Assembly (NCBI GenBank): GCA_945952315.1
Contig: CAMFIE010000011.1
Span: 51,638-115,637 of the forward strand
Reading direction: 5' to 3'
DNA from: an uncultured Rhizobium sp.
GTDB lineage: Bacteria > Pseudomonadota > Alphaproteobacteria > Rhizobiales > Rhizobiaceae
DNA length: 64,000 bases
Shown here piece after piece: positions 364-56,590 of this stretch. The translations under genes and the position numbers were made by a program. The notes beneath the pieces were generated by a model that saw only the letters and a list, made by a program, of their open reading frames with translations, searched no databases and had not been told where the DNA came from. Every line of letters starts with the position of its first letter. Within the stretch, counting starts at the first letter, position 1.

Positions 364-1176
364 ATGCAAGTACCCGATTTTTCAGCCCCGGCTTCCGGGG
401 AAGGGCGGAGCCTTGCCCGGGTGGAAGCGGCCCTCTTGCCGCTCGACGATCTCGACCGGGAGATGCTGGAAGCCCTTTGCAGCGAAGAAGAGTGCGCGCG
501 GCTGAAGGTCATCCGCAACCAGCCGATGCTGAAGCGCAAGCTCGCCTCCTCCGCCCTTGCCCGTGCCTTTCTCGCCTACCGGCTGGGCGGGACGGCCCGC
601 GACTGGCAGATCATTCCCGATGCCGCCGGTGCACCCCGGGCACACTGCCGCAATCGGCAAGTGCCGGTTCACATGAGCCGCAGCCATTCGGCAGGATTTG
701 CCGTCGTTTCAATCAGCGCGGATTGTCCGGTCGGTGTCGATGTGGAGCGCATCGCACCGCATGTCAGCGATCCGGGTTTTGCCGACCACTGGTTTTCCGG
801 TGAGGAGCGCGCCTTTCTGGCAGGCGCGGGCGACGACGGACAGGAGGTCGCTCGCCGCTTCTTCCGCCTGTGGACGCTGAAGGAAGCCTATCTGAAGGCG
901 CGCGGCCTCGGGTTTGCGCTGCCGCCGGAAACCGTTTCCCTGGCCAAGGCCGACGCCATGCCCTTCTTTCGCCTGCCGCCGGAGGAGCGGCAGAGCTGGA
1001 CCTTTGAAAGCCATCGGCTTGGCACGGATCATTGTCTTTCCTTCGTTGCCCGTGCGGCCGGGATCGATTTCTCCCTTCATGAAACCGGACTGGTGGATGG
1101 CGCGTTGATCTTTGCCCCCGCCGGTTCCCGCAGACTTGTCGATACGAGGACCTTTCATGCTCATCCCGAACCATGA
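364..1176 (+). CDS. 4'-phosphopantetheinyl transferase, Sfp/EntD type
   Basis: ATG at 364. Motifs GVDVERI and FFRLWTLKEAYLKARG, the (F/W)xxKE(A/S)xxK signature of PPTases. The 3' end overlaps the lpiA start by 20 nt. Confidence 0.8.
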   Translation: MQVPDFSAPASGEGRSLARVEAALLPLDDLDREMLEALCSEEECARLKVIRNQPMLKRKLASSALARAFLAYRLGGTARDWQIIPDAAGAPRAHCRNRQVPVHMSRSHSAGFAVVSISADCPVGVDVERIAPHVSDPGFADHWFSGEERAFLAGAGDDGQEVARRFFRLWTLKEAYLKARGLGFALPPETVSLAKADAMPFFRLPPEERQSWTFESHRLGTDHCLSFVARAAGIDFSLHETGLVDGALIFAPAGSRRLVDTRTFHAHPEP

Positions 1177-5121: not shown

Positions 5122-5238
5122 GGCTCGTTTCGGCAGAAAAGGGAGTGAAAGTCACATTTATCACCATAATTGAACAAAACTAAGCCACACAGCCCGCCTT
5201 GATTGCACCCTCCACAGGTTCAACAACGGAGGATGGGC

Positions 5239-7188: not shown

Positions 7189-7196
7189 TCATGGCT

Positions 7197-7231: not shown

Positions 7232-7254
7232 CAAAAAGCTGAACGATTGTCAGT

Positions 7255-7400: not shown

Positions 7401-7504
7401 AACATGGTTGGACGGGCAGGCTTTTCGAAGAGAGCCGCCGCGCGCGCCGTTCAGGACCCCAGGGACAGAGCCAGAAAACCGTTTTCAAGCGACCAAGACA
7501 AGCC

Positions 7505-8638: not shown

Positions 8639-9331
8639 TTGCAGGGCATGAGCTTTAACACGATTTGCCAGAAACTCATTGATGCCTGGGTCGCAACGCG
8701 CCCGGAAGTGGTTTCTACGCCTGAGGAAATCTATCAGTCCGTCGTCTCGATGTTGCCGACCCGTGCCCGGCTGACCGTGTTCTACACGTCCGATCCGTCG
8801 CCGAAGGAATGGATCCTCTCCACCGTCAAGCATTCGCGCATCACCGCCCGCATCCTGAACCTCGATACGATTTTCGCAGGCGGAAAGCTCGGCGAGCTGC
8901 GCGACCAGACCTATGTGGAAGAGGCGGTCCTGCCGCAATATCTGCGTGCCATGGAACGCAAGCAGCCGACGCTCGACAGCGTGGTCACCAAGATCCTTGG
9001 CGTGCGCGTCACCTATGACCGCATCATCCTGCCGCAGAAGACGCCGGGCCGTCCGGAATGGCTGGTTGTGTGCACCTATGGCAAGTTCATGGCGAAGGTT
9101 CCGGCGACCCAGCTCGACCTCGACCCGACAGACGAGGCCATCGTCCTTGCCCTCATCGACGGCAAGACCAGCAAGGAAATCGCGCTGGAAGTGGGGTTGT
9201 CGCACCGCACGGTCGAACACCGGCTCGACCGGATGAAGAAGCAGATCGGCGCCCGCTCGCTGCCGCATCTGAGCGCGCTTTTCGTCTGCGCCGGTTTTGA
9301 CCGGACGATCCGCTTCAAGGATCAGCCGTAA
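8639..9331 (+). CDS. LuxR-family transcriptional regulator (C-terminal LuxR/FixJ-type HTH; N-terminal about 160-aa putative ligand/autoinducer-binding-like domain)
   Basis: C-terminal DEAIVLALIDGKTSKEIALEVGLSHRTVEHRLDRMKKQIGARS is a canonical LuxR-type HTH. Preceded by a 500-bp non-coding, relatively AT-rich region (8140..8638). Alternative start at 8648 (MSFNT). Confidence 0.7.
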   Translation: MQGMSFNTICQKLIDAWVATRPEVVSTPEEIYQSVVSMLPTRARLTVFYTSDPSPKEWILSTVKHSRITARILNLDTIFAGGKLGELRDQTYVEEAVLPQYLRAMERKQPTLDSVVTKILGVRVTYDRIILPQKTPGRPEWLVVCTYGKFMAKVPATQLDLDPTDEAIVLALIDGKTSKEIALEVGLSHRTVEHRLDRMKKQIGARSLPHLSALFVCAGFDRTIRFKDQP

Positions 9332-9334
9332 GGC

Positions 9335-10540
9335 TCACACCCGCTCGAGCGCGACGGAAATCCCCTGCCCGACACCGATGCACATGGTGGAGAGGGAATA
9401 GCGACCGCCGGATAGCTTCAGTTCCAGCGCTGCCGTGCCGGTGATGCGGGCACCGGACATGCCGAGTGGATGCCCAAGCGCAATCGCCCCGCCATTCGCG
9501 TTCACCCGCTGATCGTCATCGGCAATGCCAAGCAGCCGCAAGGTGGCAAGTCCCTGCGCGGCGAAGGCCTCGTTGAGTTCGATCACGTCGAATTGATCGA
9601 TTGTCATGCCAAGCCGGGCCATCAGCTTCTGCGATGCCGGTGCCGGACCGATCCCCATGATGCGCGGCTCGACCCCTGCCGTGGCACCCCCCAGAACGCG
9701 GGCAATCGGGGTGAGCCCGTGCCTGCGGGCGGCCGCTTCCGACGCGATGATCAGCGCTGCAGCCCCATCATTGACGCCGGATGCATTGCCCGCCGTCACC
9801 GTGCCGCCCTCCTTGCGGAAAGGCGTGGGCAGCTTCGCCAGCGCTTCCATCGTCGTCGCCCGCGGATGCTCGTCACGATCCACCACCACCGGATCTCCCT
9901 TGCGGGCCGGGATGGTGACGGCGGTGATTTCCTGCGCCAGACGGCCATTTGCCTGCGCCTGCGAGGCCTTTGCCTGCGAACGCAGCGCAAAGGCATCCTG
10001 ATCCTCACGGCTCACCTTGAACTGTTCGGCAACATTTTCGCCCGTCTCCGGCATGGAATCGACGCCATACTGCTTCTTCATCACCGGGTTGATGAAGCGC
10101 CAGCCGATGGTCGTGTCGTGGATTTCCGCCGCCCTTGAGAAGGCGCTTTCGGCCTTCGGCATCACGAAGGGCGCGCGGCTCATGCTTTCCACACCGCCCG
10201 CGATGATCAGGTCCGCCTCGCCTGCCCGGATGGCGCGGGCCGCCGTGATCACCGCATCCATGCCCGAGCCGCAGAGCCGGTTCATGGTGGTGCCGGGCAC
10301 GCTGTCTGGCAGGCCTGCGAGCAGAAGCGCCATGCGCGCGACATTGCGATTGTCCTCGCCCGCCTGATTGGCACAGCCGAAGATCACCTCGTCGACGGCC
10401 GCAAAATCCAGCCCCGGATGACGCGCGACCAGCGCTTTCAGCGGCACCGCGCCCAGATCATCGGTGCGGACCGCAGACAGGGAACCGCCAAAGCGGCCGA
10501 TGGGCGTGCGGATATAGTCGCAGATAAAGGCTTCGGTCAT
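9335..10540 (-). CDS. pcaF: 3-oxoadipyl-CoA / 3-oxo-5,6-dehydrosuberyl-CoA thiolase (PcaF/PaaJ-type thiolase)
   Basis: MTEAFICDYIRTPIGRFGG...NRLCGSGMDAV...ANQAGEDNRNVARMA closely matches the PcaF/PaaJ N-terminus. ATG at 10540 (revcomp of ggtcat). Stop is 3 bp from the convergent LuxR-gene stop. Confidence 0.75.
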   Translation of the reverse strand: MTEAFICDYIRTPIGRFGGSLSAVRTDDLGAVPLKALVARHPGLDFAAVDEVIFGCANQAGEDNRNVARMALLLAGLPDSVPGTTMNRLCGSGMDAVITAARAIRAGEADLIIAGGVESMSRAPFVMPKAESAFSRAAEIHDTTIGWRFINPVMKKQYGVDSMPETGENVAEQFKVSREDQDAFALRSQAKASQAQANGRLAQEITAVTIPARKGDPVVVDRDEHPRATTMEALAKLPTPFRKEGGTVTAGNASGVNDGAAALIIASEAAARRHGLTPIARVLGGATAGVEPRIMGIGPAPASQKLMARLGMTIDQFDVIELNEAFAAQGLATLRLLGIADDDQRVNANGGAIALGHPLGMSGARITGTAALELKLSGGRYSLSTMCIGVGQGISVALERV

Positions 10541-10650
10541 GATCTGGGCTCCGGCAGGACAGGGTCGTCGGGGTTCGGCAGGCATATGAGCCCGCATTCG
10601 ATATCAACCGGAACAGGGCTTGTATAGCCGGTTCAGGAGGCGCCGGCGGC

Positions 10651-12048
10651 CTAATCCGCAAAGCCGAAGGGCGTGTCGGTGCGCCGGTAATTGTCGGGCA
10701 GAAGCTGGCGTCCGATGGGTGGTTCCGAGCGCGAGCGGCAGTCCGTCCGCTGGCAAAGGCGGCAGGAAATGCCGATGGGCGTGGGCGCGGGCGGGGCCAC
10801 CTGCTGGTTGAAATAGACCATCCGCTCGGCATAATGCGCCTCGCAGACCAGCGCCACGGCCCGGGTGACGGTCGGCAGGCCATAGCCGCCCCCGCCGGAG
10901 GAAACGGTGCGGGCAATCGAGAAGAAGCGCTGGCCATCCGGCAGTTCGAGCAACTGGGTGGAGATGGTCCGCGGGGTGGCAAAGACCTGATGCAGGCTCC
11001 AGAGCGGGCAACCGCCGCCATGCCGCGCGAAAGGGAAATTGCCGCTGTCCAGCCGCTTCGAGACATTGCCCGCCGCATCCACCCTTATGAAGAAGAAAGG
11101 CACCCGCTCCTGCCCCGGCTTCTGCAGCGTTGTGAGCCGATGCGCCGTCTGCTCGAAGCTCGCGCCGAAATGCCGGGCAATCGCCTCGACATCATATTTG
11201 CGGCTGTCCACCACCTTGGTGAAGGCGGTGTATGGCATGATGATCGCGCCCGCGCAATAGGCGGCAATCGCCCGGTGGGCGAGGCGGGCGGCGCTGTCGG
11301 TCTTGAGATTGCCCTCCCCCACCGTTTTCAGGATTTCATCGCCGAATTCGATATAGGCAAGCTGCTGCGCGAGCTGGAAATTCTGCGATGCCGTGTCGAG
11401 ACTGTCATCGAGCAGCACCTCGCGGCGATGCCAGTCGAGGCGGCGAAGAGACCCGGTCATCACCTCGGCCGGAAGCTTGCGCACGGTCAGCCCGTGGCGC
11501 TGCTTGAAATAGATGGGATAGCCGCCTGCCTCGACGATCGTGGCCGCGAGCTTTTCCGCGGCCGCATCCAGCGGCGGGAAACAGTTTCGCCGGGCGGCAA
11601 GAAAACCGCGCACGGCGGCGACCGGATCTGCCGTCTCGCCACCCGTACCGGGGGTGGCCTGCCGCTGGTCGGCGAGCGCGAACTGCGCCTCCTTGTAGGC
11701 GGTGTAAAGCCGGAGCATCGCCTCGGTGAAGCCGGGAAAGCTCGAGAGCACATCGGCCACTTCCAGCGGCGAGACATCGCTTTCGGCAAAAATCGGATCC
11801 CGCATTGCAGCACGCAGCCGCTCGGTCAGTTCCTGTCCGCTGTCCTCCAGCGCTGCCGCAAGATCGATCTTGTAGGCCTTGACGAGACGAAGCAGGACCT
11901 CCGCCGTGACCGGACGCTGGTTGCGCTCGATCAGCGCGATATAGGAGGGCGAAATCGCCAGATCTTCCGCCATCTTGGCCTGCGTGATGCCGAGATCCTT
12001 GCGCAGGCGGCGAAGGCGGGGACCGATATAGTTTCCGAGCTTTTCCAT
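10651..12048 (-). CDS. XRE-family HTH regulator with DUF2083/ImmA-like C-terminal domain (RamB / short-chain-fatty-acyl-CoA-regulator type)
   Basis: N-terminal IGPRLRRLRKDLGITQAKMAEDLAISPSYIALIERNQRP is an XRE HTH. Long C-terminal domain with cysteine cluster (CRLCQRTDC). Divergent from aceA, as for RamB-type glyoxylate-shunt regulators. Confidence 0.7.
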   Translation of the reverse strand: MEKLGNYIGPRLRRLRKDLGITQAKMAEDLAISPSYIALIERNQRPVTAEVLLRLVKAYKIDLAAALEDSGQELTERLRAAMRDPIFAESDVSPLEVADVLSSFPGFTEAMLRLYTAYKEAQFALADQRQATPGTGGETADPVAAVRGFLAARRNCFPPLDAAAEKLAATIVEAGGYPIYFKQRHGLTVRKLPAEVMTGSLRRLDWHRREVLLDDSLDTASQNFQLAQQLAYIEFGDEILKTVGEGNLKTDSAARLAHRAIAAYCAGAIIMPYTAFTKVVDSRKYDVEAIARHFGASFEQTAHRLTTLQKPGQERVPFFFIRVDAAGNVSKRLDSGNFPFARHGGGCPLWSLHQVFATPRTISTQLLELPDGQRFFSIARTVSSGGGGYGLPTVTRAVALVCEAHYAERMVYFNQQVAPPAPTPIGISCRLCQRTDCRSRSEPPIGRQLLPDNYRRTDTPFGFAD

Positions 12049-12175
12049 ACGGACATTACAACATTACAAGGAAAGTTTGTAAAGTTATACAACGTCACAC
12101 CAAGCGCTCTTTTGCACTGCACCAATGCCGGATATCGCTAACCCATACAGAACGCGAACTCATCTGGAGGTCCCC

Positions 12176-13768
12176 ATGTCCTACAAGGCACATATCGACG
12201 AAGCCGCCGCGCTGATCAACGGCAAGGCGAACTGGAACGGCATCTCGCCGGAAGCCGTTGCCCGCATGCGCGTGCAGAACCGTTTCCGCTCCGGCCTCGA
12301 CATCGCGAAATATACCGCAAAGATCATGCGCCAGGACATGGCCGCCTATGACAAGGACCCGGCAAAATACACCCAGTCGCTCGGCTGCTGGCACGGCTTC
12401 ATCGCCCAGCAGAAGATGATCTCCATCAAGAAGCATTTCGGCAATACCGACCGCCGTTACCTTTATCTCTCCGGCTGGATGGTTGCAGCGCTGCGCTCCG
12501 AATTCGGCCCGCTGCCGGACCAGTCCATGCATGAAAAGACCTCGGTTCCGGCGCTTGTCGAAGAGCTTTACACCTTCCTGCGTCAGGCCGATGCCCGTGA
12601 GCTCGGCATGCTGTTCCGCGAAATCGATGCGGCCCGCAAGGCTGGCGATCAGGTCAAGGAACGCGCGCTGGTCGAGAAGGTCGAGAACTACCAGACCCAT
12701 GTCGTTCCGATCATCGCCGATATTGATGCCGGCTTCGGCAATGCGGAAGCAACCTACCTGCTCGCCAAGAAGATGATCGAGGCCGGTGCCTGCGCGCTGC
12801 AGATCGAAAACCAGGTCTCTGACGAAAAGCAGTGCGGCCATCAGGACGGCAAGGTCACCGTGCCGCATGATGACTTTGTCGCGAAGATCCGCGCCTGCCG
12901 CTATGCCTTCCTCGAACTCGGCGTCGATGACGGCATCATCGTTGCCCGCACCGACTCGCTCGGCGCAGGCCTGACCAAGCAGATCGCGTTTTCCGCCAAG
13001 GAAGGCGATATCGGCGACCTCTACAATTCCTACCTCGATTGCGATGACGTGACCGGCCAGCCGGTTGGCAATGGCGATGTGCTGATCACCCGCAACGGCC
13101 GCACGCTGCGTCCGAAGCGCTTGATGTCGAACCTCTACCAGTTCCGCGAAGGCACGGGCGCTGACCGCTGCGTTCTCGACTGCATCAACGCCATCAACAA
13201 TGGCGCCGACCTGCTCTGGATTGAGACCGAAAAGCCGCATATCGAGCAGATCGCCTCGATGATGGACCGCATCAAGGATGTGATCCCGAATGCCAAGCTG
13301 GTCTACAACAATTCGCCGTCCTTCAACTGGACGCTGAATTTCCGCCAGCAGGTGTTCGATGCCTGGCAGGCCGAAGGCAAGGATGTTTCCGCCTATGACC
13401 GCACCAAGCTGATGAGCGTCGATTACGACAGCTCGGAACTCGCGATCGAGGCCGACGAGCGCATCCGCACCTTCCAGCGCGATGCATCGAAGCGCGCCGG
13501 CATCTTCCATCACCTGATCACGCTGCCGACCTATCACACGGCCGCTCTTTCCACCGACAATCTCGCCAAGGAATATTTCGGCGAGCAGGGCATGCTCGGC
13601 TATGTCGCCAATGTCCAGCGTCAGGAAATCCGTCAGGGCATCGCCTGCGTCAAGCACCAGAACATGTCCGGCTCCGATATCGGTGACGATCACAAGGAAT
13701 ACTTTGCCGGTGAAGCCGCCCTCAAGGCGGGCGGCATCCACAACACCATGGGCCAGTTCGCCGCCTGA
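12176..13768 (+). CDS. aceA: Isocitrate lyase (long form)
   Basis: ICL signature K-x-C-G-H (EKQCGHQDGK). RBS GGAGG 7 nt upstream of ATG 12176. 530 aa. Confidence 0.9.
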   Translation: MSYKAHIDEAAALINGKANWNGISPEAVARMRVQNRFRSGLDIAKYTAKIMRQDMAAYDKDPAKYTQSLGCWHGFIAQQKMISIKKHFGNTDRRYLYLSGWMVAALRSEFGPLPDQSMHEKTSVPALVEELYTFLRQADARELGMLFREIDAARKAGDQVKERALVEKVENYQTHVVPIIADIDAGFGNAEATYLLAKKMIEAGACALQIENQVSDEKQCGHQDGKVTVPHDDFVAKIRACRYAFLELGVDDGIIVARTDSLGAGLTKQIAFSAKEGDIGDLYNSYLDCDDVTGQPVGNGDVLITRNGRTLRPKRLMSNLYQFREGTGADRCVLDCINAINNGADLLWIETEKPHIEQIASMMDRIKDVIPNAKLVYNNSPSFNWTLNFRQQVFDAWQAEGKDVSAYDRTKLMSVDYDSSELAIEADERIRTFQRDASKRAGIFHHLITLPTYHTAALSTDNLAKEYFGEQGMLGYVANVQRQEIRQGIACVKHQNMSGSDIGDDHKEYFAGEAALKAGGIHNTMGQFAA

Positions 13769-13797
13769 GCGACGAAACGGACATCAGACAAGACGAA

Positions 13798-13827
13798 GGG
13801 GGCGAGCCATCGCCCCCTTTGCCGTTT
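13798..13827 (+). terminator. Rho-independent terminator of aceA
   Basis: GGGGGCGA-gcca-TCGCCCCC hairpin followed by TTTGCCGTTT, 30 nt after the aceA stop. Confidence 0.6.
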
Positions 13828-13909
13828 GGACAGGACGTCGGTTTTATCGTCATGCTCGGGCTTGTCCCGAGGATGAGGGTCGAGGAGGGGTCAGGGCCAG
13901 GCGGCCAGT

Positions 13910-14731
13910 CTATCTCCGGGTAATCCGGATTTTGAGAAGCGCCACCTCTTCCGCCGTCAGCGCGCGCACGGCGCCCTTTTCCAGCTCTCCCAGCGCAAGG
14001 CCGCCGATCTCGACGCGGATGAGCCGCAGGCATTCGGCCCCGAGCACCTCCAGCATGCGGCGGATCTGCCGGTTCCGGCCTTCTTCCAGCACCACTTCCA
14101 GCCAGGAATTGCGCCCGCCTTCGCGCAGGAGCGTGACCCGCTTCGCCGTCAGCCGCTCGCCCTCGTGGATGACGCCTGCCTCCATGGCGGCGAGAAAGGC
14201 CTGATCGGCAATTCGGTCGATCTGGACATGATAGGTCTTGGCTACATGGGTTTGCGGATCAAGCAGCATCTGAGCAGTGACCGTGTCATTGGTGAAGAGC
14301 AGCAGACCTTCGCTTGCCTTGTCCAGCCTGCCGACCGGGGAGATATGGGCCTGATCGAGCGCGCCGAGACAGTCATAAACCGTCGGGCGGCCTTCCGGAT
14401 CGTGGCGGGTGGTGAGAAGCCCACGCGGCTTGTTCAGCATCAGCCAGACCGGCTTTTCCGCCGCGACCCGCTTTCCGTCGACGGTAATGCGCGCGGTTTC
14501 CACATCCACCCAGGTCTCGAGCGCCGTCATCACCCGGCCATCGACGGAAACGCGGCCCGCGCGGATCAGCGCTTCAGCCTCGGTGCGCGAGCAGAAGCCG
14601 AGCTTGGAGAGTGCACGCGCAAGCGTTGCCCGCTTGCCGCCCGTCTCTGCTGCGGGCTTTTTCGCCGGGTGAGCCGGTCTTGCCTTGCGCGTTGGTTTCA
14701 TCCCGTCGGTCCGTTCCGGTTTTCCTGCCAC
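13910..14731 (-). CDS. rRNA pseudouridine synthase, RsuA/RluB/RluE family (S4 domain plus PseudoU_synth_2)
   Basis: S4-like N-terminal region ([29 protein letters not shown]) and catalytic motif [20 protein letters not shown] at 14731 or ATG at 14701. Confidence 0.75.
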
Positions 14732-14853
14732 GGATTGCCATTGCGCGGGCGGTCCCGTCCACCAAATTCTGCAATCGCCTTTGACCCCGCCCCGCGCGAA
14801 GGGTAGAAGCCGGGCAGAACGAACGAACTGCCACTGCCCGAAAGCGCCCGACC

Positions 14854-15777
14854 ATGACGACTGTCGAGACCCTCACCACCGAACTCGTGACGCTGCGCGA
14901 CTACTGGCGCTATGCAATCTCGCGCTTCAATGCCGCCGATCTTTCCTATGGCCATGGCACCACGACGGCGAGTGACGATGCGGCCTTCCTGCTGCTCGAC
15001 AGTCTCGACCTGCCGATCGATGCGCTCGATCCCTTCCTCGATGCCCGGTTGCTGCCGGAGGAGCGCCGGCTGCTTGCCGAGCGGATCGAGGCCCGGGTGA
15101 CGACCCGCAAGCCCTCTGCTTATCTGACCGGCCGCTCCTATATCCAGGGCGTGCGCTTCCTTGTCGACGAGCGGGTGATCGTGCCGCGCTCGCATATCGG
15201 CGAAATCCTGTTCAATGAATATGTGAACGGTCAGGGCTCCTCGATCCTGCCTGATCCCTTCTCGGTGGAAAGCGTGGCCGAGCTTTGCACCGGCTCCGGC
15301 TGCCTTGCTGTGCTCGCCGCGAAATTCTATCCGCAGGCAAGCGTCGATGCGGTTGATCTCTCCGCTGATGCACTGGAGGTCGCAAAGCTCAACCTCGCCG
15401 AACACGAGGTGGAAGAGCAGGTCAGCCTGTTCGAAGGCGATCTCTTCGAACCGCTTCAAGGCCGCACCTACGATCTCATCATCACCAATCCGCCTTATGT
15501 GCATCATGAGGCGATGGCGGGCTTTCCGCCGGAGCACCGGGCAGAACCGGCCATGGCCCATGACGGCGGCGAGGACGGGCTGGATCTGGTGCGCCAGATC
15601 CTTGATCAGGCGGCAGACCACCTCAATCCCGGCGGTGCTCTCCTCTGCGAGATCGGCTCTGGCCGGGAAATCCTTGAAGAGGACTATCCGCATCTGGACT
15701 TCGTCTGGCTCGAAACCGAGCAGTCGCAGGATGCGGTGTTCTGGATTTCGGCGGAAGCGCTGGGCGTGACCTTCTGA
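14854..15777 (+). CDS. prmB: 50S ribosomal protein L3 glutamine N5-methyltransferase
   Basis: PrmB-type N-terminal domain plus class I SAM fold with NPPY motif (IITNPPYV); 307 aa. Confidence 0.75.
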
Positions 15778-48203: not shown

Positions 48204-49413
48204 TCAATTAAGAATTCCTGCCTGACCGTCGTCGCTGGAGGCTGGCCAGAGCCACGCCGCAAGAACCAGACCGGCGACTGCAATAGCGCAAAGCACGAGC
48301 GCAGTCGATGGCAGGCCGATTTTAGCACCCAGCCATCCTGCCAGCGGATAGGTCAAAAGCCAGCAGGCATGGGACAGCGCAAACTGTGCGGCAAAGAGCG
48401 AAGGACGGTCTTGCGCAGGGGACGAACGGCGAAGGAGCCGTCCCGAAGGGGTCTGCGCCCCGGAATAACCGAGACCGATCACCAGCCAGACCACGAGCAG
48501 CCCTTCATAGGACTGGACAAAGGCAGTCGCAATGAGACCGGCGACTAGGATGCAGACACTCGCGAGCATCACGGGACGATCCGGCATGCGGTCCAGGAGC
48601 CTTGGAAGGACGAGCGCGACAAGCATCGAGCCGCCGCCGAAAGCTGCAAGGGCAAGGGCGGTCTCGTCCTGTGCGAGCCCAAGCCTCGACTGCACGAAGA
48701 CGAAGGTGTTGACGATCACCATCGAGCCAGCAGCTGCGACGCAGAGCGATATGGCAAGAAGCCCCCGCAGGCGCGGCGTGCCAAGATAGAGGCGAATGCC
48801 CCGTGTTGTCCGCTCGTAGATGCCGCGCCGCCCGGGCCTGCGCGCGCTCGGAAGCCGGACGGAAACAACAAGGGCTGCGGAAGCAAAAAAAGCCGATGAC
48901 GGTGCCTGCGAACAGCGCGTGGAACGAAATGACAGTCAGAAGTGCTGCCGCCAGCATGGGGCTGACGAGGCTTTCCAGATCATAGGCGAGACGGGACAGC
49001 GAAAGCGCCCGCGTGTAGTCCTTCTCATCGGGAAGCACGTCCGGAATGGTTGCATGAAAGGTCGGCGTGAAGGCGGCCGAAGCCGACTGGAGAACGAAGA
49101 TCAGTATATAGACCTGCCAGACTTCCGTAACGAAAGGCAGGCAGACGGCGACGGCAGCGCGAACGAGATCAAGCACAACCAGCATCGGGCGTCGCGGCAG
49201 AACCTCAGCAAAAGCCCCCGCAATCGGTGCGACACCCACATAGGCGATCATCTTGATCGCAAGCGCGGTGCCAAGGACCGCTCCCGCATGCGCGCCTGCG
49301 ATGTCATAGGCAAGAAGCCCGAGCGCGACGGTCGCGAGTCCCGTACCGATCAGGGCAATGACCTGCGCCAGAAACAGATGGCGGTAGGTGCGGTTCTTGA
49401 GGATGTCGAGCAT
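48204..49413 (-). pseudogene. MFS transporter gene interrupted by a frameshift (candidate site: T7/A7 homopolymer at about 48884..48892)
   Basis: ORF 48505..49413 has a convincing MFS N-terminal half, then becomes Arg/Cys-rich nonsense. ORF 48204..48722 in another frame encodes the C-terminal MFS half. Confidence 0.5.
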
Positions 49414-49437: not shown

Positions 49438-49713
49438 TCACAGGTACTTCGTGATGGTCCGGAATTCGTCCATGGCCTGACGCTGGCTTTCGGCGAGATC
49501 ACCGACCGCGTCCTCAAGGCAGTGATCGAGATGATCCTGTATCAGCGTCCGCTTGGCGTTGCGGACGGCACTTTCGACCGCGTGCAGCTGCTGGGCGAGA
49601 TCGAGGCATGGACGGCCTTCGCCGATCATTTCGATCACGCGCCTGAGGTGCCCCTCGGCGCGGCGCAGGCGCTTTGCGATCTCGGGATGGGTTTCGTGTC
49701 GATGGTCGCTCAT
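49438..49713 (-). CDS. CsoR/RcnR/FrmR-family metal-sensing transcriptional repressor (DUF156)
   Basis: 91 aa. RcnR-type ligand set H4, C36, H61, H64 (CsoR-type reading gives C36, H61, C65). Directly upstream of the MFS gene on the same strand. Confidence 0.8.
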   Translation of the reverse strand: MSDHRHETHPEIAKRLRRAEGHLRRVIEMIGEGRPCLDLAQQLHAVESAVRNAKRTLIQDHLDHCLEDAVGDLAESQRQAMDEFRTITKYL

Positions 49714-49919: not shown

Positions 49920-51884
49920 ATGTGCGGTTTTTCCGGTTATCTCGGCCATGTGGACGCGCCGGATAGAACACTGGTGGCAATGGCGGATGCTATCGCCCAC
50001 CGGGGGCCGGATGGCCGTGGCTTCTTTCATGCGGACCGCAAGGGAAGAACGCCCGGCGTGGGGCTTGCCCATGTGCGACTGGCGATCATCGATCCGTCCG
50101 ACAGTCTCCAGCCGATGCTTTCTGCCGATGGCACCCTCGCGCTGGCCTTCAATGGCGAAATCTTCAACTATACGGAGCTGCGACAGGACCTGATCGCACG
50201 CGGTCACACCTTCAGAACCTCCGGCGATACCGAGGTTCTGCTCAAGCTCTATGAAGAGATGGGCGAGGCCTGCCTCAGCCGTCTCAATGGCGACTTCGCA
50301 TTCGCGATCTGGGATGGCCGACGCAAATGCCTGTTTCTGGCCCGCGACCGGATGGGGGTGAGGCCGCTTTTCTATACGCGGCATGGCGGAACCTTCTACT
50401 TTGCCTCCGAAGCCAAGGCGCTGCTTACCGTGCCGGGCATCGGCTGCGATCTTGATCTGATCGCGCTCGACCAGATCTTCACGCTTTGGTCCCCGATCGG
50501 GCAAAGGACTGCCTTTTCCGGCATCTCGGAACTGGAACCGGGAACCTTCCTGCGCGCCGATGCATCCGGCGAGCGGATCGACTCCTACTGGCAGCTCGAT
50601 TTTCCCGACGCGGCGGATGCTTTTCGCGACACGGGCGATCCAGATGCGAGCCTCGAGCAACTGAACGATCTTCTTGTCGATGCCACGCGGATCCGCCTGC
50701 GTGCCGATGTTCCGGTCGGCGCCTGTCTTTCCGGCGGACTGGATTCCTCGCTCGTCGCCGCACTCGCGGCTGAGCACGCGCCGCAGGGATTGCGCACATT
50801 TTCCATCGCCTTCGACACGCCGGAGCATGATGAAAGTGCCTTCCAGCAGCAGATGGCTCTCCATCTCGGCGTTTCCAATGACACGGTCAACTGCTCAGGC
50901 GGGGATATCGCTTCTGTCTTCCCGCAGGTGATCCGGCTGGCGGAAAAGCCGCTGATCCGCACGGCACCCGCGCCGATGCTGAAGCTTTCCGCACTCATCC
51001 GGGAGAATGGCATCAAGGTGGTGCTGACCGGCGAAGGTGCCGACGAGGTGTTCGCGGGCTACGACATTTTCAAGGAGGCGCGGGTCCGGCGTTTCTGCGC
51101 GCGTCAGCCCGGTTCCCGGCTGCGGCCGCTTTTGTTCCGCAGGCTTTACCCCTATCTTCCGGGTCTCCAGAAGCAGTCTGCCGCCAGTCTTGCCGCCTTT
51201 TTCGGGGCGCATGCAAGCGCTGACGATGACCCGCTGTTCTCGCACCGGCCCCGGATCGCCAACACGGCGGGCGCCAAACTGTTCTTCTCCGACGACCTGA
51301 AGGCACGCCTTGGCGCCTATGATGCCGCTGAAGACCTGATTTCCCTTTTGCCGGAACGCTTTTCCCGCTGGCATCCGCTGCATCAGGCGCAGTATCTCGA
51401 AACCCGTTTCCTGCTGCCGGGTTACATCCTCTCCAGCCAGGGCGACCGCATGGCCATGGGCAATGGCGTCGAAGGCCGGTTCCCCTTCCTTGATCACCGA
51501 CTGGTGGAATTTGCTGCCAAACTGCCTCCGGAACTGAAACTGAGGGGGCTCGAAGAAAAGTATCTTCTGCGCAAGGCAGCCAGCGGGCGGCTGCCCGCAT
51601 CGATCATCAACCGGGTGAAGCAACCCTATCGCGCACCGGACAGCAAGGCCTTCCTCGGCGGTACCGGGAGCGACTATGTGCGCAGCCAGTTCGATCCCGT
51701 CCGACTGAAAGCGCAGGGTCTTTTTAACCCTGCGTCTACCGGAAAACTTTATGAAAAATGTGCAACCTCCGAGGCTCCCGGCTTTCGGGCAGATACAGCC
51801 TTTGTCGGCATTCTGTCCACGGGCCTTTGGCTGGAGGCATTCAGGGCAACGAGCAAACCGACCGCTGCCGGTCTGGCAGCCTGA
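49920..51884 (+). CDS. Asparagine synthetase B-like glutamine amidotransferase (class II, N-terminal Cys nucleophile)
   Basis: Starts MCGFSGYLG (Cys2 nucleophile). PP-loop SGGLDSS in CLSGGLDSSLVAAL. RBS GAGGGG before ATG 49920. 654 aa. Confidence 0.8.
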   Translation: MCGFSGYLGHVDAPDRTLVAMADAIAHRGPDGRGFFHADRKGRTPGVGLAHVRLAIIDPSDSLQPMLSADGTLALAFNGEIFNYTELRQDLIARGHTFRTSGDTEVLLKLYEEMGEACLSRLNGDFAFAIWDGRRKCLFLARDRMGVRPLFYTRHGGTFYFASEAKALLTVPGIGCDLDLIALDQIFTLWSPIGQRTAFSGISELEPGTFLRADASGERIDSYWQLDFPDAADAFRDTGDPDASLEQLNDLLVDATRIRLRADVPVGACLSGGLDSSLVAALAAEHAPQGLRTFSIAFDTPEHDESAFQQQMALHLGVSNDTVNCSGGDIASVFPQVIRLAEKPLIRTAPAPMLKLSALIRENGIKVVLTGEGADEVFAGYDIFKEARVRRFCARQPGSRLRPLLFRRLYPYLPGLQKQSAASLAAFFGAHASADDDPLFSHRPRIANTAGAKLFFSDDLKARLGAYDAAEDLISLLPERFSRWHPLHQAQYLETRFLLPGYILSSQGDRMAMGNGVEGRFPFLDHRLVEFAAKLPPELKLRGLEEKYLLRKAASGRLPASIINRVKQPYRAPDSKAFLGGTGSDYVRSQFDPVRLKAQGLFNPASTGKLYEKCATSEAPGFRADTAFVGILSTGLWLEAFRATSKPTAAGLAA

Positions 51885-51896
51885 TACTGGAGTAAT

Positions 51897-52169
51897 ATGA
51901 TGAGCACCGTCTTCGCGTCCTTCGTTCGTGCATTCATTGTTGAAAGCTTCCTGTTCGGTGATGCATCCGCAGCGCCTGCGGACGGAGAGTCGCTGATTGC
52001 CGCAGGCATCATCGATTCCACCGGCGTTCTCGAACTGGTCGCCTTTGTCGAAGATTGTTTCAGCGTCACGGTCGAGGATGCCGACATCACGCCGGAAAAT
52101 CTTGATTCCATCGAAGCCATCGCGACTTACATCCAGAAAAAGTCCGGGCGCGCGCCGCTTGCCGCTTAA
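51897..52169 (+). CDS. Acyl/peptidyl carrier protein
   Basis: Phosphopantetheine attachment motif GIIDSTGVLELVAFVE; 90 aa. Confidence 0.7.
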   Translation: MMSTVFASFVRAFIVESFLFGDASAAPADGESLIAAGIIDSTGVLELVAFVEDCFSVTVEDADITPENLDSIEAIATYIQKKSGRAPLAA

Positions 52170-52193
52170 GGCGCAGACGCGGGGAGACGGACC

Positions 52194-53741
52194 ATGCGGG
52201 TGGAAACCTTCCTGGCGAGCAGTGCGCAACACGATCCGGACCGGATTGCCATCATCGCAGGGGATCAGCGGCTGAGCTATCGCGACTTTCATGCGAAGGC
52301 GCGCGCGCTTGCCGGGCATCTTGCCGCCCATGGCGTTGCGCGCAATGACCGCGTGCTTGTCTTCATGGACAATTGCTGGGAAGCGGCGGTTGCCATTTTT
52401 GCGACCCTTTGCGCCGGGGCGACGTTCAGCCCGATCAATGCCTCGACCAAGGCCGGAAAGCTTGCCTACATCATCGGCAATTGCGAACCGCGCGCCATCA
52501 TCACCCAGGCCCGCCTGCTGCCGATTGTCGAAGAGGCCCGCATCCTGTCCGGCCAGAGCACTCTTCATGTCGTCTCCGCGGACGGCAGGGCGGGCGCTCC
52601 GGAAGGTGTCACCTCTCTGACGCAGGCGATGATGGCCGATCCCGTTGACCCTGCGCATCACGGCACGGATGACGATCTCGCCATGCTGATCTACACGTCA
52701 GGCTCAACCGGGCAACCGAAGGGCGTGATGATGACCCACCGCAATATCGATGCGGCATCGGGATCGATCATCACCTATCTTCGGATGCAAGCGGACGACA
52801 TCATCCTCAACGTGCTGCCGCTCGCCTTTGACTATGGCCTTTACCAGTTGCTGATGTGCGTGAGGCTTGGCGCGACACTGGTGCTTGAAAAGTCGTTCGC
52901 CTTTCCTCGCGCCATCTTCGACATCATGCGCCGGGAACGGGTAACGGGTCTGCCGCTGGTTCCCACCATGGCCGCGCTGATCCTGCGGATGCAGGATCTA
53001 GAACCGGGCTTTCTGCCCGACCTGCGCTTTCTCACCAACACGGCGGCCGCCTTGCCGGAAGATCACATTGCCCGGCTTTCGGCGCTTTTCCCCGATGCCC
53101 GGCTCTATTCCATGTACGGGCTGACCGAATGCAAGCGCTGCACCTATCTGCCGCCGGAAGAGCTTCACCGCCGCCCGGGTTCGGTCGGCATCGCCATTCC
53201 GGGCACGGAGGCCGTTGTCGTCGATGAGAATGGCGTACCGGTCGCGCCCGGAGTTACCGGTGAGCTGGTCATCCGGGGGCCGCACGTGATGCAGGGATAC
53301 TGGCGCGATGAAGCCGCAACGCAAGCCGCGCTGAAGCCCGGCAAGGGCCCGGGTGAACGGCAACTGCATACCGGTGATCTGTTTCGGGTGGACGAGGACG
53401 GGTTCCTTTACTTCGTCGGCCGGAAGGATGACATCATCAAGACCCGGGGTGAGAAGGTCGCGCCCAAGGAGGTGGAGGCGGTGCTTTATGCCCTGCCCGG
53501 CATCGCCGAGGCCGTGGTTGTCGGTCTTGCCGATCCCGTTCTTGGCCAGGCGATTGCCGCACTTGTGGTTTCAGACCGTGACGATCTGACCGCGCGGGAC
53601 ATACAGGCGCATTGTGCGCGGCACCTCGAGGACTTCATGGTTCCCGCTGCTGTCGAATTCCGGACATCCCTTCCGCGCACCGACACGGGGAAAGTCAGCC
53701 GCAGGCTCGCCGCCGAGATGATGAAGGAGAGGACCCTGTGA
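52194..53741 (+). CDS. AMP-dependent synthetase/ligase (adenylate-forming enzyme, likely loading the adjacent carrier protein)
   Basis: AMP-binding motifs IYTSGSTGQPKGV, YGLTEC, TGDLFRVDEDGFLYFVGRKDDIIKTRGEKV. Confidence 0.8.
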   Translation: MRVETFLASSAQHDPDRIAIIAGDQRLSYRDFHAKARALAGHLAAHGVARNDRVLVFMDNCWEAAVAIFATLCAGATFSPINASTKAGKLAYIIGNCEPRAIITQARLLPIVEEARILSGQSTLHVVSADGRAGAPEGVTSLTQAMMADPVDPAHHGTDDDLAMLIYTSGSTGQPKGVMMTHRNIDAASGSIITYLRMQADDIILNVLPLAFDYGLYQLLMCVRLGATLVLEKSFAFPRAIFDIMRRERVTGLPLVPTMAALILRMQDLEPGFLPDLRFLTNTAAALPEDHIARLSALFPDARLYSMYGLTECKRCTYLPPEELHRRPGSVGIAIPGTEAVVVDENGVPVAPGVTGELVIRGPHVMQGYWRDEAATQAALKPGKGPGERQLHTGDLFRVDEDGFLYFVGRKDDIIKTRGEKVAPKEVEAVLYALPGIAEAVVVGLADPVLGQAIAALVVSDRDDLTARDIQAHCARHLEDFMVPAAVEFRTSLPRTDTGKVSRRLAAEMMKERTL

Positions 53742-54742
53742 CCACAAAACCGTTCGGGAACGGCGAGGCACCCTATGGGCCGCATGTCTTCGCCATTGAT
53801 GCGGAAGCGGAAACGGCGCGCATCGTAAAGGGACTGCGCCAACAGCTGAAAGACCAGCGGAAGCGGGGGCTGGTGCTCGGCTTGTCTGGCGGCATCGATT
53901 CCAGCGTCTGTCTTGCCCTTGCCGTGCGGGCGGTTGGAGAAAAAAATGTCTGCGCGCTCTACATGCCGGAAGCGGATTCGGATCCCGAAAGCCTGGAGCT
54001 CGGTCAGCTGGTGGCCCGGACGTTTGGTGTCGAGGGCATCATCGAGGACATAGCGGAGCCACTTGCCGCTATGGGCTGCTATCGGCGGCGCGATACGTTC
54101 ATCCGCGATGTGGTGCCGGACTACGGCGCGGGCTGGGCATCGAAAATCGTGATTTCGGATGCGCTGCAGGGTGGCTTCAGCATTTCCTATCTGGTGGTCG
54201 CCGATCCTTCAGGCAACCAGACCCGCCACCGCCTGCCGCTTGCAACCTATCTCGGCATCGTGGCCGCATCCAACATGAAGCAGCGGACGCGGAAACAGTT
54301 CGAGTATTTCCATGCCGACCGGCTGAACTTCGCGGTTCTCGGAACGCCGAACCGGCTGGAATATGATCAGGGCTTCTTCGTCAAGAACGGTGACGGGGCC
54401 GCCGACGTCAAGCCGATCGCCCATCTTTACAAGAGCGAGGTCTATGCGCTCGCAAACCATCTCGGCGTGCCGGAAAAGATCCGCAAGCGGCCGCCGACAA
54501 CCGATACCTATTCTCTGGCGCAGACACAGGAAGAGTTTTATTTCTCGCTGCCCTGGGACCGCATGGATCTTTGCCTCTACGGCATGAATCACGGTATTCC
54601 CGCCGGTGATATCGGACAGGCCGCCGGGCTGACTGTGGAAGAGGTCGAGCGGGTGTTTGCAGATATCCGGTCGAAGCGACGCGCGACACGCTATCTGCAT
54701 CAGCCGCCGCTGCTCATCGAACCCGTTGCGGAAATTGCCTGA
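53738..54742 (+). CDS. NAD+ synthetase (NadE)-family PP-loop ATP pyrophosphatase / amidating enzyme
   Basis: PP-loop LGLSGGIDSSV; GTG start overlapping the upstream stop (GTGA); about 335 aa. Confidence 0.65.
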   Translation: MTTKPFGNGEAPYGPHVFAIDAEAETARIVKGLRQQLKDQRKRGLVLGLSGGIDSSVCLALAVRAVGEKNVCALYMPEADSDPESLELGQLVARTFGVEGIIEDIAEPLAAMGCYRRRDTFIRDVVPDYGAGWASKIVISDALQGGFSISYLVVADPSGNQTRHRLPLATYLGIVAASNMKQRTRKQFEYFHADRLNFAVLGTPNRLEYDQGFFVKNGDGAADVKPIAHLYKSEVYALANHLGVPEKIRKRPPTTDTYSLAQTQEEFYFSLPWDRMDLCLYGMNHGIPAGDIGQAAGLTVEEVERVFADIRSKRRATRYLHQPPLLIEPVAEIA

Positions 54743-54755
54743 GCGGACAGACGTT

Positions 54756-55862
54756 TCAGTCGAGATCGCCGCCGAAGAAGCGGTTCCAGCTTTCCCCCGC
54801 CAGCCCGTTTATGAAACAATCCCCTTCGGAGAACCGTTTCACGAGTTCCGTATCCCTGGCATGGATCACGCTTGCTGAAACACTGGTAAAAATCATCGGG
54901 CGGCGTGTTGCAGCCTTGAGGATGCCACTGCTGCTGCGGCCCCGCACGGCGCTGGCTCCGCGCGCGAAGGCATGGGCAAACAGCTGGTCCAGCACAAGCC
55001 CGTAATGCTCCGGTTCCGAAAGCAGCTGCAGGACACGCGCGATCCCGCCCGGCTTTGAATGATAGAGGAACCCGCCAAGGATTGCTCCCGATTTCTGGCG
55101 CACCAGCGCAAGCGCCGGGTCTCCGAATGCCGGCTTTTCCATTGCGGTTTCCAGCACATGGTCGAGATATCCATGGCTCCAGTCTGGCCGGGCTGCTTGC
55201 CTTTCACTGAAAGCGCGTACCGCATCGCCGAACTCGGTCCTGCTGCAGGTCTGGGTCGAGATTGCCGCCGGAGCGGGTTCCGGTCTGAAACCGAGGAGGC
55301 TCTCACCAAACGTCCTTCTGCTGAAAAGCGCATCCACGCCGCGGGCAAGCCCGCCGAACAACCGCAACGGGGGCAACCAGCGGGAAGCGGCCGTCAGCAG
55401 GAAGCCTGACGGACGCAGAACGCGGAACCAGTCCAGACTGAAATCCGGCAGATTATCCCCCCGCACTTTTTGCCACATGGCCTGCGAGACGGGGCTTGCG
55501 GTCTCGCTCATGGACACGTCCTGCGGCCCCGCCAGGAAGGCCTTCAGAAGACGCGCGCCCGCGAGCGGATCGCGGTCTTTCTCCTCGGTCATCAGGGCAC
55601 CGCAGAAGGCCGCACGCACGCGGCGCCCGTCGATCACATAAGGAACGGTGTGAACCCCGATGAACCCGGTTATGCGGCCGTCCGATGTGACATGCACCAG
55701 AGAGGGAATATCCGGTTCGCGATAGGGCCCATCCAGATAGAATTCCCGGAAATAGGCGCGAAGGGCGTTCGAAGGCGCCTTGCGCTCGTGTCGCAGCAGC
55801 CTGTTGAAAAGCGTCGCAACCTGATCGAGATCATGCGCCGCAAGCGGTCTGACGAGGCTCAT
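54756..55862 (-). CDS. FemAB-like / GNAT-fold acyltransferase family protein (Acetyltransf_6-like)
   Basis: 368 aa; weak GNAT-like features. Assignment by context and length similarity to exosortase-associated FemAB-like proteins. Translationally coupled (ATGA) to the upstream methyltransferase gene. Confidence 0.4.
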   Translation of the reverse strand: MSLVRPLAAHDLDQVATLFNRLLRHERKAPSNALRAYFREFYLDGPYREPDIPSLVHVTSDGRITGFIGVHTVPYVIDGRRVRAAFCGALMTEEKDRDPLAGARLLKAFLAGPQDVSMSETASPVSQAMWQKVRGDNLPDFSLDWFRVLRPSGFLLTAASRWLPPLRLFGGLARGVDALFSRRTFGESLLGFRPEPAPAAISTQTCSRTEFGDAVRAFSERQAARPDWSHGYLDHVLETAMEKPAFGDPALALVRQKSGAILGGFLYHSKPGGIARVLQLLSEPEHYGLVLDQLFAHAFARGASAVRGRSSSGILKAATRRPMIFTSVSASVIHARDTELVKRFSEGDCFINGLAGESWNRFFGGDLD

Positions 55863-56590
55863 GGCCGGGTTCCACCTGTAAATCTTGCCACCGCCACGCG
55901 GTCGTGCCCTTCCGCATCCTGTACGAAGTCGAGCGGCTCGAAAACCGCGCTGCGGCTCAGCAGCAGGCGTGCCTGCCGGTCCTGACCGTGACCGAACTCA
56001 AACAGAAGATAGCCGCCCTGTTTCAGATAGGAAGGCGCCTCGCGCACCAGCCGTTGAAGAATGGAAATGCCGTAAGGCCCGCCGTCGAAGGCCTCGCGCG
56101 GGTCCTCTTCCATCAGACTTGCGCTTTCGCCCATGAGCTTGGCCGTTGAAATATAGGGCGGATTGCAAACGATGATCGCAGCCCGATCGTCACCGACGGC
56201 CTGCTCAAGCGCCTGGAAAAGATCCCCCTGAAAGACCTGAACCCGGTCTTGAAGCCCAAGCTGCTCCGCATTCCGTCGCGCTGTCGCAACAGCATCTGCA
56301 CCGAGATCCGCCGCCAGGACCCTTGCATCGGCGCGCGCGCGCGCCAGCACACAGGTCAGATTGCCAGACCCGCAACACATGTCGATGACGAGCGGTGACC
56401 GCTCGCTGATCTGACCGAGAAGCCCGACGGCCCGCTCTCCCAAGAGCGCGGTTTCCGCCCGCGGTGCAAAGACCGCCCCGTCCAGCCGTAGTTCCAATCC
56501 CATGAATAGGTGTTTTTCGCCGCGTCGCATGCCTGTCTCGGTGCTTTTTGGACTGAATTCGAAACCGGGGACATAATATCCTGAAATCAT
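55859..56590 (-). CDS. Class I SAM-dependent methyltransferase with NPPY motif (HemK/PrmC-like N-methyltransferase family)
   Basis: SAM motif IDMCCGSGNLT, catalytic IVCNPPYIS; 243 aa. Confidence 0.7.
   Translation of the reverse strand: MISGYYVPGFEFSPKSTETGMRRGEKHLFMGLELRLDGAVFAPRAETALLGERAVGLLGQISERSPLVIDMCCGSGNLTCVLARARADARVLAADLGADAVATARRNAEQLGLQDRVQVFQGDLFQALEQAVGDDRAAIIVCNPPYISTAKLMGESASLMEEDPREAFDGGPYGISILQRLVREAPSYLKQGGYLLFEFGHGQDRQARLLLSRSAVFEPLDFVQDAEGHDRVAVARFTGGTRP

Follow-up and report, generated by a model that had tools for sequence, protein, structure and literature searches.

A six-gene module in a Rhizobium contig, related to the exosortase-associated accessory genes, as a candidate pathway for an amino-acid-derived glycan substituent

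In a stretch of 64,000 nucleotides from an uncultured Rhizobium sp. (assembly GCA_945952315.1, contig CAMFIE010000011.1, positions 51,638 to 115,637), referred to here at its full length as the window, six genes between positions 49920 and 56590 encode an AsnB-like amidotransferase, a carrier protein, an AMP-forming ligase, a NadE-like enzyme, a protein with two GCN5-related N-acetyltransferase (GNAT) domains, and a HemK-like methyltransferase. The question raised by this locus is whether these proteins act together and, if so, what they make. The module is an uncharacterised variant of the accessory gene set associated with exosortases, and we lean, with confidence slightly above even, toward the view that it is self-contained, building an amino-acid-derived substituent on the carrier protein and installing it on a surface glycan.

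The six open reading frames (ORFs) recognized in a first-pass annotation of the window are all present and intact where they had been placed. The plus-strand genes encode the amidotransferase (49920-51884; 654 amino acids (aa), with a Met-Cys start and the PP-loop SGGLDSS), the carrier protein (51897-52169; 90 aa, motif IIDSTG), the ligase (52194-53741; 515 aa), and the NadE-like PP-loop enzyme (53738-54742; 334 aa). The tight packing that had been described is borne out by the coordinates, with gaps of 12 bases (amidotransferase to carrier) and 24 bases (carrier to ligase), and a GTG start of the NadE-like gene that overlaps the ligase stop codon (GTGA). On the minus strand lie the tandem-GNAT gene (54756-55862; 368 aa) and the methyltransferase gene (55859-56590; 243 aa as an ORF, motif CNPPYIS), which overlap by 4 bases, as read from the ORF coordinates. 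For the methyltransferase, a start at 56530 (223 aa) is favored by the gene callers and by the alignment of orthologs. The two operons are convergent, with 13 bases separating their stop codons, and the GC content of the locus is in no way unusual. In hidden Markov model (HMM) searches, the check that had been suggested for the family assignments, four of the six families exceed curated cut-offs, while the carrier protein falls below them and the 368-aa protein matches no model.

The arrangement of these genes is far from chance, because 67 of 80 loci from related genomes carry the complete set of six as a linked group, and a four-gene core recurs in metagenome loci. The genome loci were fetched around homologues of the 368-aa protein, and all are from Hyphomicrobiales, in the genera Ensifer/Sinorhizobium, Rhizobium, Shinella, Neorhizobium, Pararhizobium, Mesorhizobium, Aminobacter, Chelativorans, Aquamicrobium, Bosea, Rhodopseudomonas, and Roseiarcus. 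When linkage was mapped by tblastn, with a feature counted if it lay within 10 kb, the intact block of amidotransferase, carrier, ligase, and NadE-like genes was recovered in 72 of these 80 loci, and the methyltransferase-GNAT pair in 74. The two blocks usually converge; Aminobacter (L081, L083) has them divergent, and Roseiarcus (L074) in the same direction. In some Sinorhizobium strains, they are split by unrelated inserts.

These inserts were considered as possible conserved partners and ruled out, given that they consist of unrelated genes (minCD, hypothetical proteins). In Sinorhizobium meliloti, the two halves of the module lie approximately 10 kb apart (L091, on a replicon of strain Ak57 labelled pSymA; positions 1435513-1440214 of pSymB in strain 1021), and between them lie genes for an L,D-transpeptidase, an EAL protein, and a two-component system, as well as minCDE.

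A second scan, anchored on the NadE-like protein, recovered 80 metagenome loci (56-75% identity, GC 0.45-0.73), in 63 of which the NadE-like gene lies beside at least one of the amidotransferase, carrier, and ligase genes. When only the 44 loci of 6 kb or more are counted, one or more of these partners accompany the NadE-like gene in 43, and the full trio in 38. The gene order varies, with at least six arrangements found; the tandem GNAT is present in 16 of the metagenome loci, and a HemK-like methyltransferase in nine. In the genome and metagenome loci alike, the carrier gene is always located between or beside the amidotransferase and ligase genes, and the genomic context of the AsnB-like protein indicates a specialised role. 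A fortuitous grouping of housekeeping enzymes, that is, asparagine and NAD synthetases, a fatty-acid-CoA ligase, an acyl carrier protein (ACP), a release-factor methyltransferase, and an acetyltransferase, is highly improbable. This would agree with the models TIGR01536, NF002048, and TIGR00536, which are all passed, and with the public annotations, which carry these names, but the linkage persists through many rearrangements and across this wide range of GC content, and there are translational overlaps between the genes.

The relationship with the exosortase loci emerges from both family models and gene neighborhoods. The likeness to exosortase-associated genes for the modification of exopolysaccharides (EPS), as proposed in the first-pass annotation, finds support in the exosortase-A-associated ligase model TIGR03098, which is the best NCBIfam match of the ligase, and in the XrtA amidotransferase model TIGR03108, the second-best match of the AsnB-like protein. 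In addition, the core of the module stands beside an exosortase with an EpsI domain in three metagenome contigs (L133, L140, L168), where the exosortase follows the NadE-like gene immediately or next but one. Membership of the XrtA families in the strict sense does not hold, as the ligase scores 456.3 bits against a cut-off of 592.35, and the amidotransferase 419.8 against 816.9; the ligase and amidotransferase of the exosortase-adjacent contig L133 likewise fall below these cut-offs. The exosortase-EpsI proteins of the three contigs match PF09721 and PF11984 and pass TIGR02602 and TIGR02914, and genes for GT2, Wzy_C, Wzx, PCP-kinase, and priming sugar transferase proteins are found downstream. 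The NadE-like proteins of these contigs are 57-59% identical to that of the window. The ligase and amidotransferase form a sister family of their XrtA-associated counterparts, occurring with or without an exosortase. The exosortase that the earlier annotation had found to be missing was not detected in the window either by domain or by homology: PF09721 and PF11984 are absent among the called genes of approximately window positions 1-15,100 and 15,900-64,000, and a single tblastn query, the exosortase of L133, found no homologue either in the window or in any of the 80 loci from Hyphomicrobiales.

The module resembles the XrtA set in its stand-alone carrier protein, its EPS-locus setting, and its related ligase and amidotransferase. 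Judging from the TIGRFAM descriptions, the XrtA set presumably also has a pyridoxal phosphate (PLP) decarboxylase (TIGR03099) and a FemAB-family protein (TIGR03019), whereas the module has no decarboxylase, and includes a NadE-like enzyme, a HemK-like methyltransferase, and a tandem GNAT without the FemAB signature. To our knowledge, the function of the XrtA accessory set is itself uncharacterised. The main text of Haft 2006 makes no mention of the ligase, ACP, or amidotransferase genes (PMC1569441).

Some metagenome variants have features of their own. In L133, the exosortase (8866-10869) is fused to an N-terminal sugar-nucleotidyltransferase/hexapeptide (GlmU-like) domain and lies directly after a carrier-AsnB-ligase-NadE module and a separate EpsI protein; a B12-binding radical SAM gene is located upstream of the module. 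A variant with the order NadE-AsnB-ligase-methyltransferase-carrier is followed by a conserved 290-aa protein with no Pfam or NCBIfam match, homologues of which are found in six loci (L146, at 12747-14504; L166, L129, L130, L152, L109). In L146, an alpha/beta hydrolase comes after this protein and scores 74 bits against TIGR03101 (hydrolase 2, exosortase A system-associated), below the cut-off of 203.

The nature of the unit that the module would build can be approached through the ligase. This protein has the domains PF00501 and PF13193, and scores 288 bits against the amino-acid adenylation model TIGR01733 (cut-off 317). A search of solved structures recovered the adenylation domains of nonribosomal peptide synthetases (NRPSs), together with VinN (3WVN), aligned over its full length at 283 bits. 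In the specificity region, VinN scores 129 bits versus 69 for the next protein, and the alignment is ungapped within the TECKR (beta13-beta14 loop) segment. A search of a representative database returned mostly giant multi-module NRPSs, at 31-33% identity per domain, and did not reach the XrtA-type ligases; it establishes the ligase as an NRPS-type adenylation domain, and nothing further.

The enzyme VinN activates (2S,3S)-3-methylaspartate as a beta-amino acid, a mode in which it also binds L-aspartate, and loads the stand-alone ACP VinL. Its published specificity determinants are D230 (for the amino group), the bulky F231 and S299, and the pair K330/R331, carried on a beta13-beta14 loop shortened by one residue (PMC11253843). 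Once a 16-residue tag offset in the numbering had been corrected and checked, the positions D230/F231/S299/K330/R331 were found to be D/Y/T/K/R in the window ligase, either identical or conservative. The surrounding motifs are near-invariant, FDYGLY being found in 69 of 73 orthologues and YGLTECKRCTY in 71 of 73. The best prediction for the substrate is thus an aspartate-type acidic amino acid, which would be tethered through its side-chain carboxyl. Aspartate itself is probably a better candidate than 3-methylaspartate, given that there is no glutamate mutase nearby. A fatty-acid substrate or a small signalling lipid, one of the options raised in the earlier annotation, is unlikely, because the ligase belongs with the NRPS-type enzymes that adenylate amino acids and has a VinN-like pocket of the aspartate type. 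The same amino-acid-type pocket speaks against the fatty-acid-CoA ligase of a housekeeping assemblage.

Among the ligases of the metagenome loci (L092-L171), some variants of the module have TEC[A/I/V/T/M/L/H]R or TEA[A/T]ARL at the position of TECKR. This is the pattern expected of a substrate-determining position, and the variation in the residue pair that matches K330/R331 of VinN, between KR, [A/I/V/T/M/L/H]R, and A/T-A-R-L types, suggests that different lineages may load different amino acids on the same scaffold.

The VinN/VinL system, which belongs to vicenistatin-type macrolactam pathways (PDB 3WV4, 3WV5, 3WVN), shares with the module a stand-alone adenylation-domain enzyme beside its carrier protein, in addition to all five acidic beta-amino-acid specificity residues. 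The remaining components of that system, namely glutamate mutase, the PLP decarboxylase VinO, VinM, VinK, and polyketide synthases, are found neither in the window nor in the related loci. Unlike vicenistatin biosynthesis, the module has downstream amidotransferases, a GNAT, and a methyltransferase, and its context is one of polysaccharides rather than polyketides.

The carrier protein is only weakly matched by the PP-binding model (E 0.015), and scores 55.7 bits against NF052616 (cut-off 130). Its alignment with a peptidyl carrier protein of solved structure, 2my5 (E 1.3e-10), puts the phosphopantetheine serine, that of IIDSTG, in register with the serine of 2my5, which is the Ser-to-Ala position of 2my6. 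A lead toward the ornithine-lipid proteins OlsH/OlsI, which arose from a weak HMM match of the carrier, was dropped, as the score is far under the cut-off and there is no GH3-like gene. The Sfp-type phosphopantetheinyl transferase (PPTase) that had been pointed out at 364..1176 is real (PF01648) and is called at 421-1176, but it lies in a separate operon 49 kb away and is unlinked to the cluster. This PPTase probably serves its neighbor, a 1348-aa AMP-binding protein; that it primes the carrier of the module is possible but unsupported.

In the apparent operon of the PPTase, this 1348-aa AMP-binding/AMP-binding_C/hexapeptide-repeat protein, the 3' end of which occupies the first ~359 bases of the window, precedes the PPTase, which is followed by an MprF/LpiA-like lysyl-phosphatidylglycerol synthase (~1157-3754) and a VirJ/AcvB homologue (3751-5121). 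It is unusual for lpiA-acvB to be preceded by an NRPS-like enzyme together with a PPTase (window 1-5121; L172 2563-11371).

Two enzymes of the module are of types that amidate carboxylates by way of adenylates. The AsnB-like protein has the Pfam domains PF00733 and PF13537, together with GATase domains, and Cys2 is its glutaminase nucleophile. Its closest solved structure is that of the hydroxyamidotransferase TsnB9 (7ylz, 220 bits), followed by E. coli AsnB, and its failure to pass the E. coli-type model NF006949 (313 bits, cut-off 499) is a further point against a housekeeping asparagine synthetase. The NadE-like protein, which matches PF02540 and is translationally coupled to the ligase, shares with the NAD synthases of NF002048/PRK00876 a score above the HMM cut-off (499.7 bits, cut-off 313), the PP-loop (SGGIDS), and the GDGxxD motif, but differs from them in its gene linkage and in an insertion of ~50 aa relative to the Pyrococcus NadE 2e18. 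We propose, from sequence and linkage, that it may be a dedicated amidating enzyme of the pathway rather than a housekeeping NAD synthase. Its substrate is probably not nicotinic acid adenine dinucleotide (NaAD), because relatives of at least 56% identity are almost always encoded with the amidotransferase, carrier, and ligase, and because of the insertion. The linkage data suggest that the whole NadE subfamily is probably not an NAD synthase, and hence that it is mis-named.

With the threshold relaxed to E <= 10, the 368-aa protein still has no match in Pfam or NCBIfam. An AlphaFold model (from a 40-sequence alignment) has a predicted local distance difference test (pLDDT) score of 88.7 and a predicted template modelling (pTM) score of 0.88, and its Foldseek matches, at template modelling (TM) scores of 0.5-0.58, resolve two GNAT domains in one chain. 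Its structural relatives include Eis, N-myristoyltransferase, and tandem GNATs of the MshD type, at the level of the fold only (9-14% identity, TM ~0.5). Of the earlier FemAB/GNAT-like assignment, the GNAT part stands, in the form of a tandem fold, while the FemAB part does not, with FemAB-type HMMs unmatched and neither FemX nor FemA among the top 60 structural matches. As modelled, the protein is a new family with a tandem GNAT fold, and not a member of FemAB. It has 264 homologues, and the 120 that are listed are either unnamed, "hypothetical", or generic GNAT/N-acetyltransferase-domain proteins; among the matches listed, those from named organisms are from Hyphomicrobiales. We propose, on the basis of the modelled fold, that the tandem GNAT would move the carrier-bound aminoacyl group onto an amine acceptor.

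The methyltransferase matches PF05175 and passes TIGR00536 (139 bits, cut-off 115.5), but it scores 163 bits against the PrmC model TIGR03534 (cut-off 199.1), aligning with profile positions 53-252 only. The NPPY motif is invariant in five of six aligned orthologues, in which conservation begins at FMGL, residue ~29, and the best PDB matches are 4dzr and E. coli HemK. The N-terminal release-factor-binding domain is missing, and the protein is thereby excluded from the PrmC equivalog. This too runs counter to a housekeeping release-factor methyltransferase, as does a second HemK/MTS-type methyltransferase gene at 14854-15777 on the plus strand (307 aa, 34% identical to the cluster protein), which probably represents the true glutamine methyltransferase for a ribosomal protein or release factor. 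By analogy with its relatives, the cluster methyltransferase is proposed to N-methylate a carboxamide or an amine of the transferred group.

The likeness of these two enzymes to protein-modifying ones raises the idea of a protein acceptor, in which the tandem GNAT would put the aminoacyl group on a surface or secreted protein (a PEP-CTERM protein in exosortase hosts), at its N-terminus or at a lysine, and the HemK-like enzyme would methylate a protein amide. This is distinctly unlikely. The best structural matches of the GNAT do include the protein-acylating N-myristoyltransferases and Eis, the methyltransferase has its relatives among the protein glutamine methyltransferases, and the module directly adjoins an exosortase-EpsI gene in L133, L140, and L168, but the structural likeness is the distant one given above, and no candidate substrate protein is conserved beside the module. 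Furthermore, no exosortase was found in the Hyphomicrobiales loci, and Shinella genomes are reported to be without PEP-CTERM proteins or systems (PMC9012009).

The case for a glycan acceptor comes primarily from synteny. A Wzx gene is adjacent to the module in 52 of the 80 genome loci, as part of a Wzx/Wzy locus that encodes a Polysacc_synt flippase, a GumC-type co-polymerase, a Wzy_C protein, a polysaccharide deacetylase, and glycosyltransferases. The best match of the deacetylase is the holdfast deacetylase HfsH (162 bits, below the cut-off), and this locus of the relatives also has a second tandem GNAT, paralogous to the first over its full length (27% identity, E 7e-34). The polysaccharide decoration that the first-pass annotation had offered as one option is consistent with this synteny. 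In S. meliloti, the GumC-type co-polymerase may correspond to SMb21506, as suggested by gene order only, and the locus may be numbered roughly SMb21506-21515, a guess made from its position relative to minCDE. Literature retrieved through the locus tags of the S. meliloti orthologues consists only of citations of Jofre & Becker 2009, on SMb21506. In the closest relatives, Rhizobium aquaticum and Rhizobium sp. C1 and C4, the module stands alone, between dctABD-type and transporter genes.

The product might also be a free small molecule, such as an N-acylated or N-methylated aspartate or isoasparagine amide, or a dipeptide-like osmolyte or signal comparable with N-acetylglutaminylglutamine amide (NAGGN). 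In this case, the tandem GNAT would acylate a soluble amine, and the link with polysaccharide loci would be regulatory or historical. Such a product would suit the absence of an adjacent polysaccharide gene in the window and in 22 of the 67 complete loci, the resemblance of the AsnB-like protein to the NAGGN amidotransferase (TIGR03104, 358 bits, below the cut-off of 570), and the action of the tandem GNATs MshD and Eis on small molecules. It sits poorly with the 52 loci located directly beside Wzx/Wzy genes, including those of the paralogous GNAT, and with the three independent metagenome loci that lie inside exosortase EPS loci. Given, in addition, that no exporter or regulator was found to be conserved with the module in the loci of its relatives, a free small molecule is considered unlikely, although less so than a protein acceptor.

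The favored model is one of decoration of a surface glycan, and it retains the carrier-tethered unit, amidated, transferred, and N-methylated, that had been suggested in the earlier annotation. From the intact genes, the family and fold assignments, the conserved ligase pocket, and the gene linkage, we infer a substrate, an order of steps, a carboxylate to be amidated, an acceptor, and an atom to be methylated. The VinN-like ligase would adenylate an acidic amino acid at its side-chain (beta) carboxyl and form a thioester on the 90-aa carrier, leaving the alpha-carboxylate and the amino group free. Vicenistatin-type pathways follow the loading by VinN onto the stand-alone ACP with removal of the free carboxylate of the bound amino acid (PMC10662134). 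The module has no decarboxylase, but two carboxylate-amidating enzymes, and amidation is proposed for this reason: the glutamine-dependent AsnB-like enzyme, the ammonia-type NadE-like enzyme, or both, would turn the free carboxylate (on the simplest reading, the alpha-carboxylate) into a carboxamide, so that the thioester becomes one of the isoasparaginyl type. The second amidating enzyme may act in the amidation of another carboxylate, such as that of a uronic acid, in the conversion of the amide to an amidine or nitrile, or in a parallel ammonia-dependent route.

The tandem GNAT would then transfer this group to an amine, and the likeliest acceptor would be an amino sugar in a repeat unit linked to a lipid or a nucleotide. 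In the relatives, the adjacent HfsH-like deacetylase would expose the acceptor amine, while the module of the present genome, which stands alone, would act in trans. The HemK-like NPPY methyltransferase may finally N-methylate the new carboxamide or the amino nitrogen; methylation of the amide is suggested because the HemK relatives methylate the side-chain amides of glutamine and because the release-factor-binding domain is absent. Aspartic acid is known to be amide-linked to amino sugars in the O-antigens of Providencia and Proteus, including aspart-4-yl on Qui4N (PMC10609480).

A number of observations weigh against this model. The AsnB-like protein passes the generic asparagine synthase model TIGR01536 (497 bits, cut-off 267), and the NAD-synthase motifs of the NadE-like protein are largely intact. 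Only one amidating enzyme is required, although two are encoded, the role given to the NadE-like enzyme is a guess, and the action of either enzyme on a carrier-bound substrate is a supposition. The donor of the GNAT could be an acyl-CoA instead of the carrier, and proteins are the substrates of the enzymes structurally nearest to the GNAT (N-myristoyltransferase, Eis) and to the methyltransferase (PrmC). There is no polysaccharide gene in the 64-kb window, nor is any partner of this kind within reach past its ends, the 93.8-kb metagenome contig in which the window was located itself ending at window position 64000; because of this, and of the complete loci with no adjacent Wzx gene, the acceptor could be something other than a glycan. 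Within the locus, the scan for promoters and terminators gave matches at chance level only, and the Rfam scan found no RNA family and no riboswitch. We know of no enzyme activity or product for any member of the module.

Decorations of this general kind are established elsewhere. The D-alanylation of cell-surface polymers by DltA/DltC is dependent on a carrier protein, and the synthesis of the Nod factors includes deacetylation by NodB, N-methylation by NodS, and acyl transfer from NodF by NodA. The logic of these systems, in which a group passes from an adenylating enzyme to a small carrier, and then, through a transferase, to a glycan, resembles that of the module. The full loci of the relatives extend the parallel with the Nod factors, as they combine a deacetylase, an N-methyltransferase, and an N-acyltransferase. 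The protein families of the module, by contrast, all differ from those of the Dlt and Nod systems, and a step of amidation is added.

Beyond this genome, the possibility is raised, as a tentative and rather doubtful extension, that the module represents a widespread and undescribed pathway, in which a VinN-type enzyme working outside polyketide synthesis would give a beta-aspartyl carrier, an isoasparaginyl-type amide, N-methylation, and installation on a glycan by a tandem GNAT. If so, the pathway would span Hyphomicrobiales and many other bacteria, some of them with exosortases, and would provide the first concrete chemistry for the long-unexplained ligase and ACP genes of the exosortase EPS loci. 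It would also mean that a paralogue of NAD synthase or of AsnB forms the amide, that a paralogue of the protein-glutamine methyltransferases N-methylates it on a non-protein substrate, and that the tandem GNAT belongs to a new family. The module is conserved in plant symbionts, on the chromids of S. meliloti and S. fredii, where it accompanies an uncharacterised Wzx/Wzy locus, and in Mesorhizobium, Bosea, and Rhodopseudomonas, and would point to a new glycan decoration by an amino-acid amide, relevant to symbiosis, biofilms, and floc formation. In present annotations, its genes go under the names asparagine synthase, NAD(+) synthase, generic acyl-CoA or fatty-acid ligase, hypothetical protein, and methyltransferase. 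The ligase pocket yields a specific, testable prediction, that is, the loading of aspartate on the carrier.

The first 16 kb of the window contain the PPTase, lpiA/acvB, a thiolase, an isocitrate-lyase-like protein, and the second HemK-like gene, while the portion from ~16 to 64 kb holds ABC transporters, catabolic enzymes, and regulators. Upstream of the AsnB-like gene, and divergent from it, a repressor of the CsoR/RcnR/FrmR type (49438-49713) adjoins a major facilitator superfamily (MFS) transporter gene found in two minus-strand frames (48505-49413, 48204-48722), which is probably a frameshift, pseudogene, or assembly error; neither the split transporter gene nor the repressor is conserved with the module in other loci. 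Further upstream, on the minus strand, positions 19546-22581 encode a fusion of 1011 aa, which joins APH-like, peptidase M23, and class-III aminotransferase parts and is adjoined by another class-III aminotransferase.

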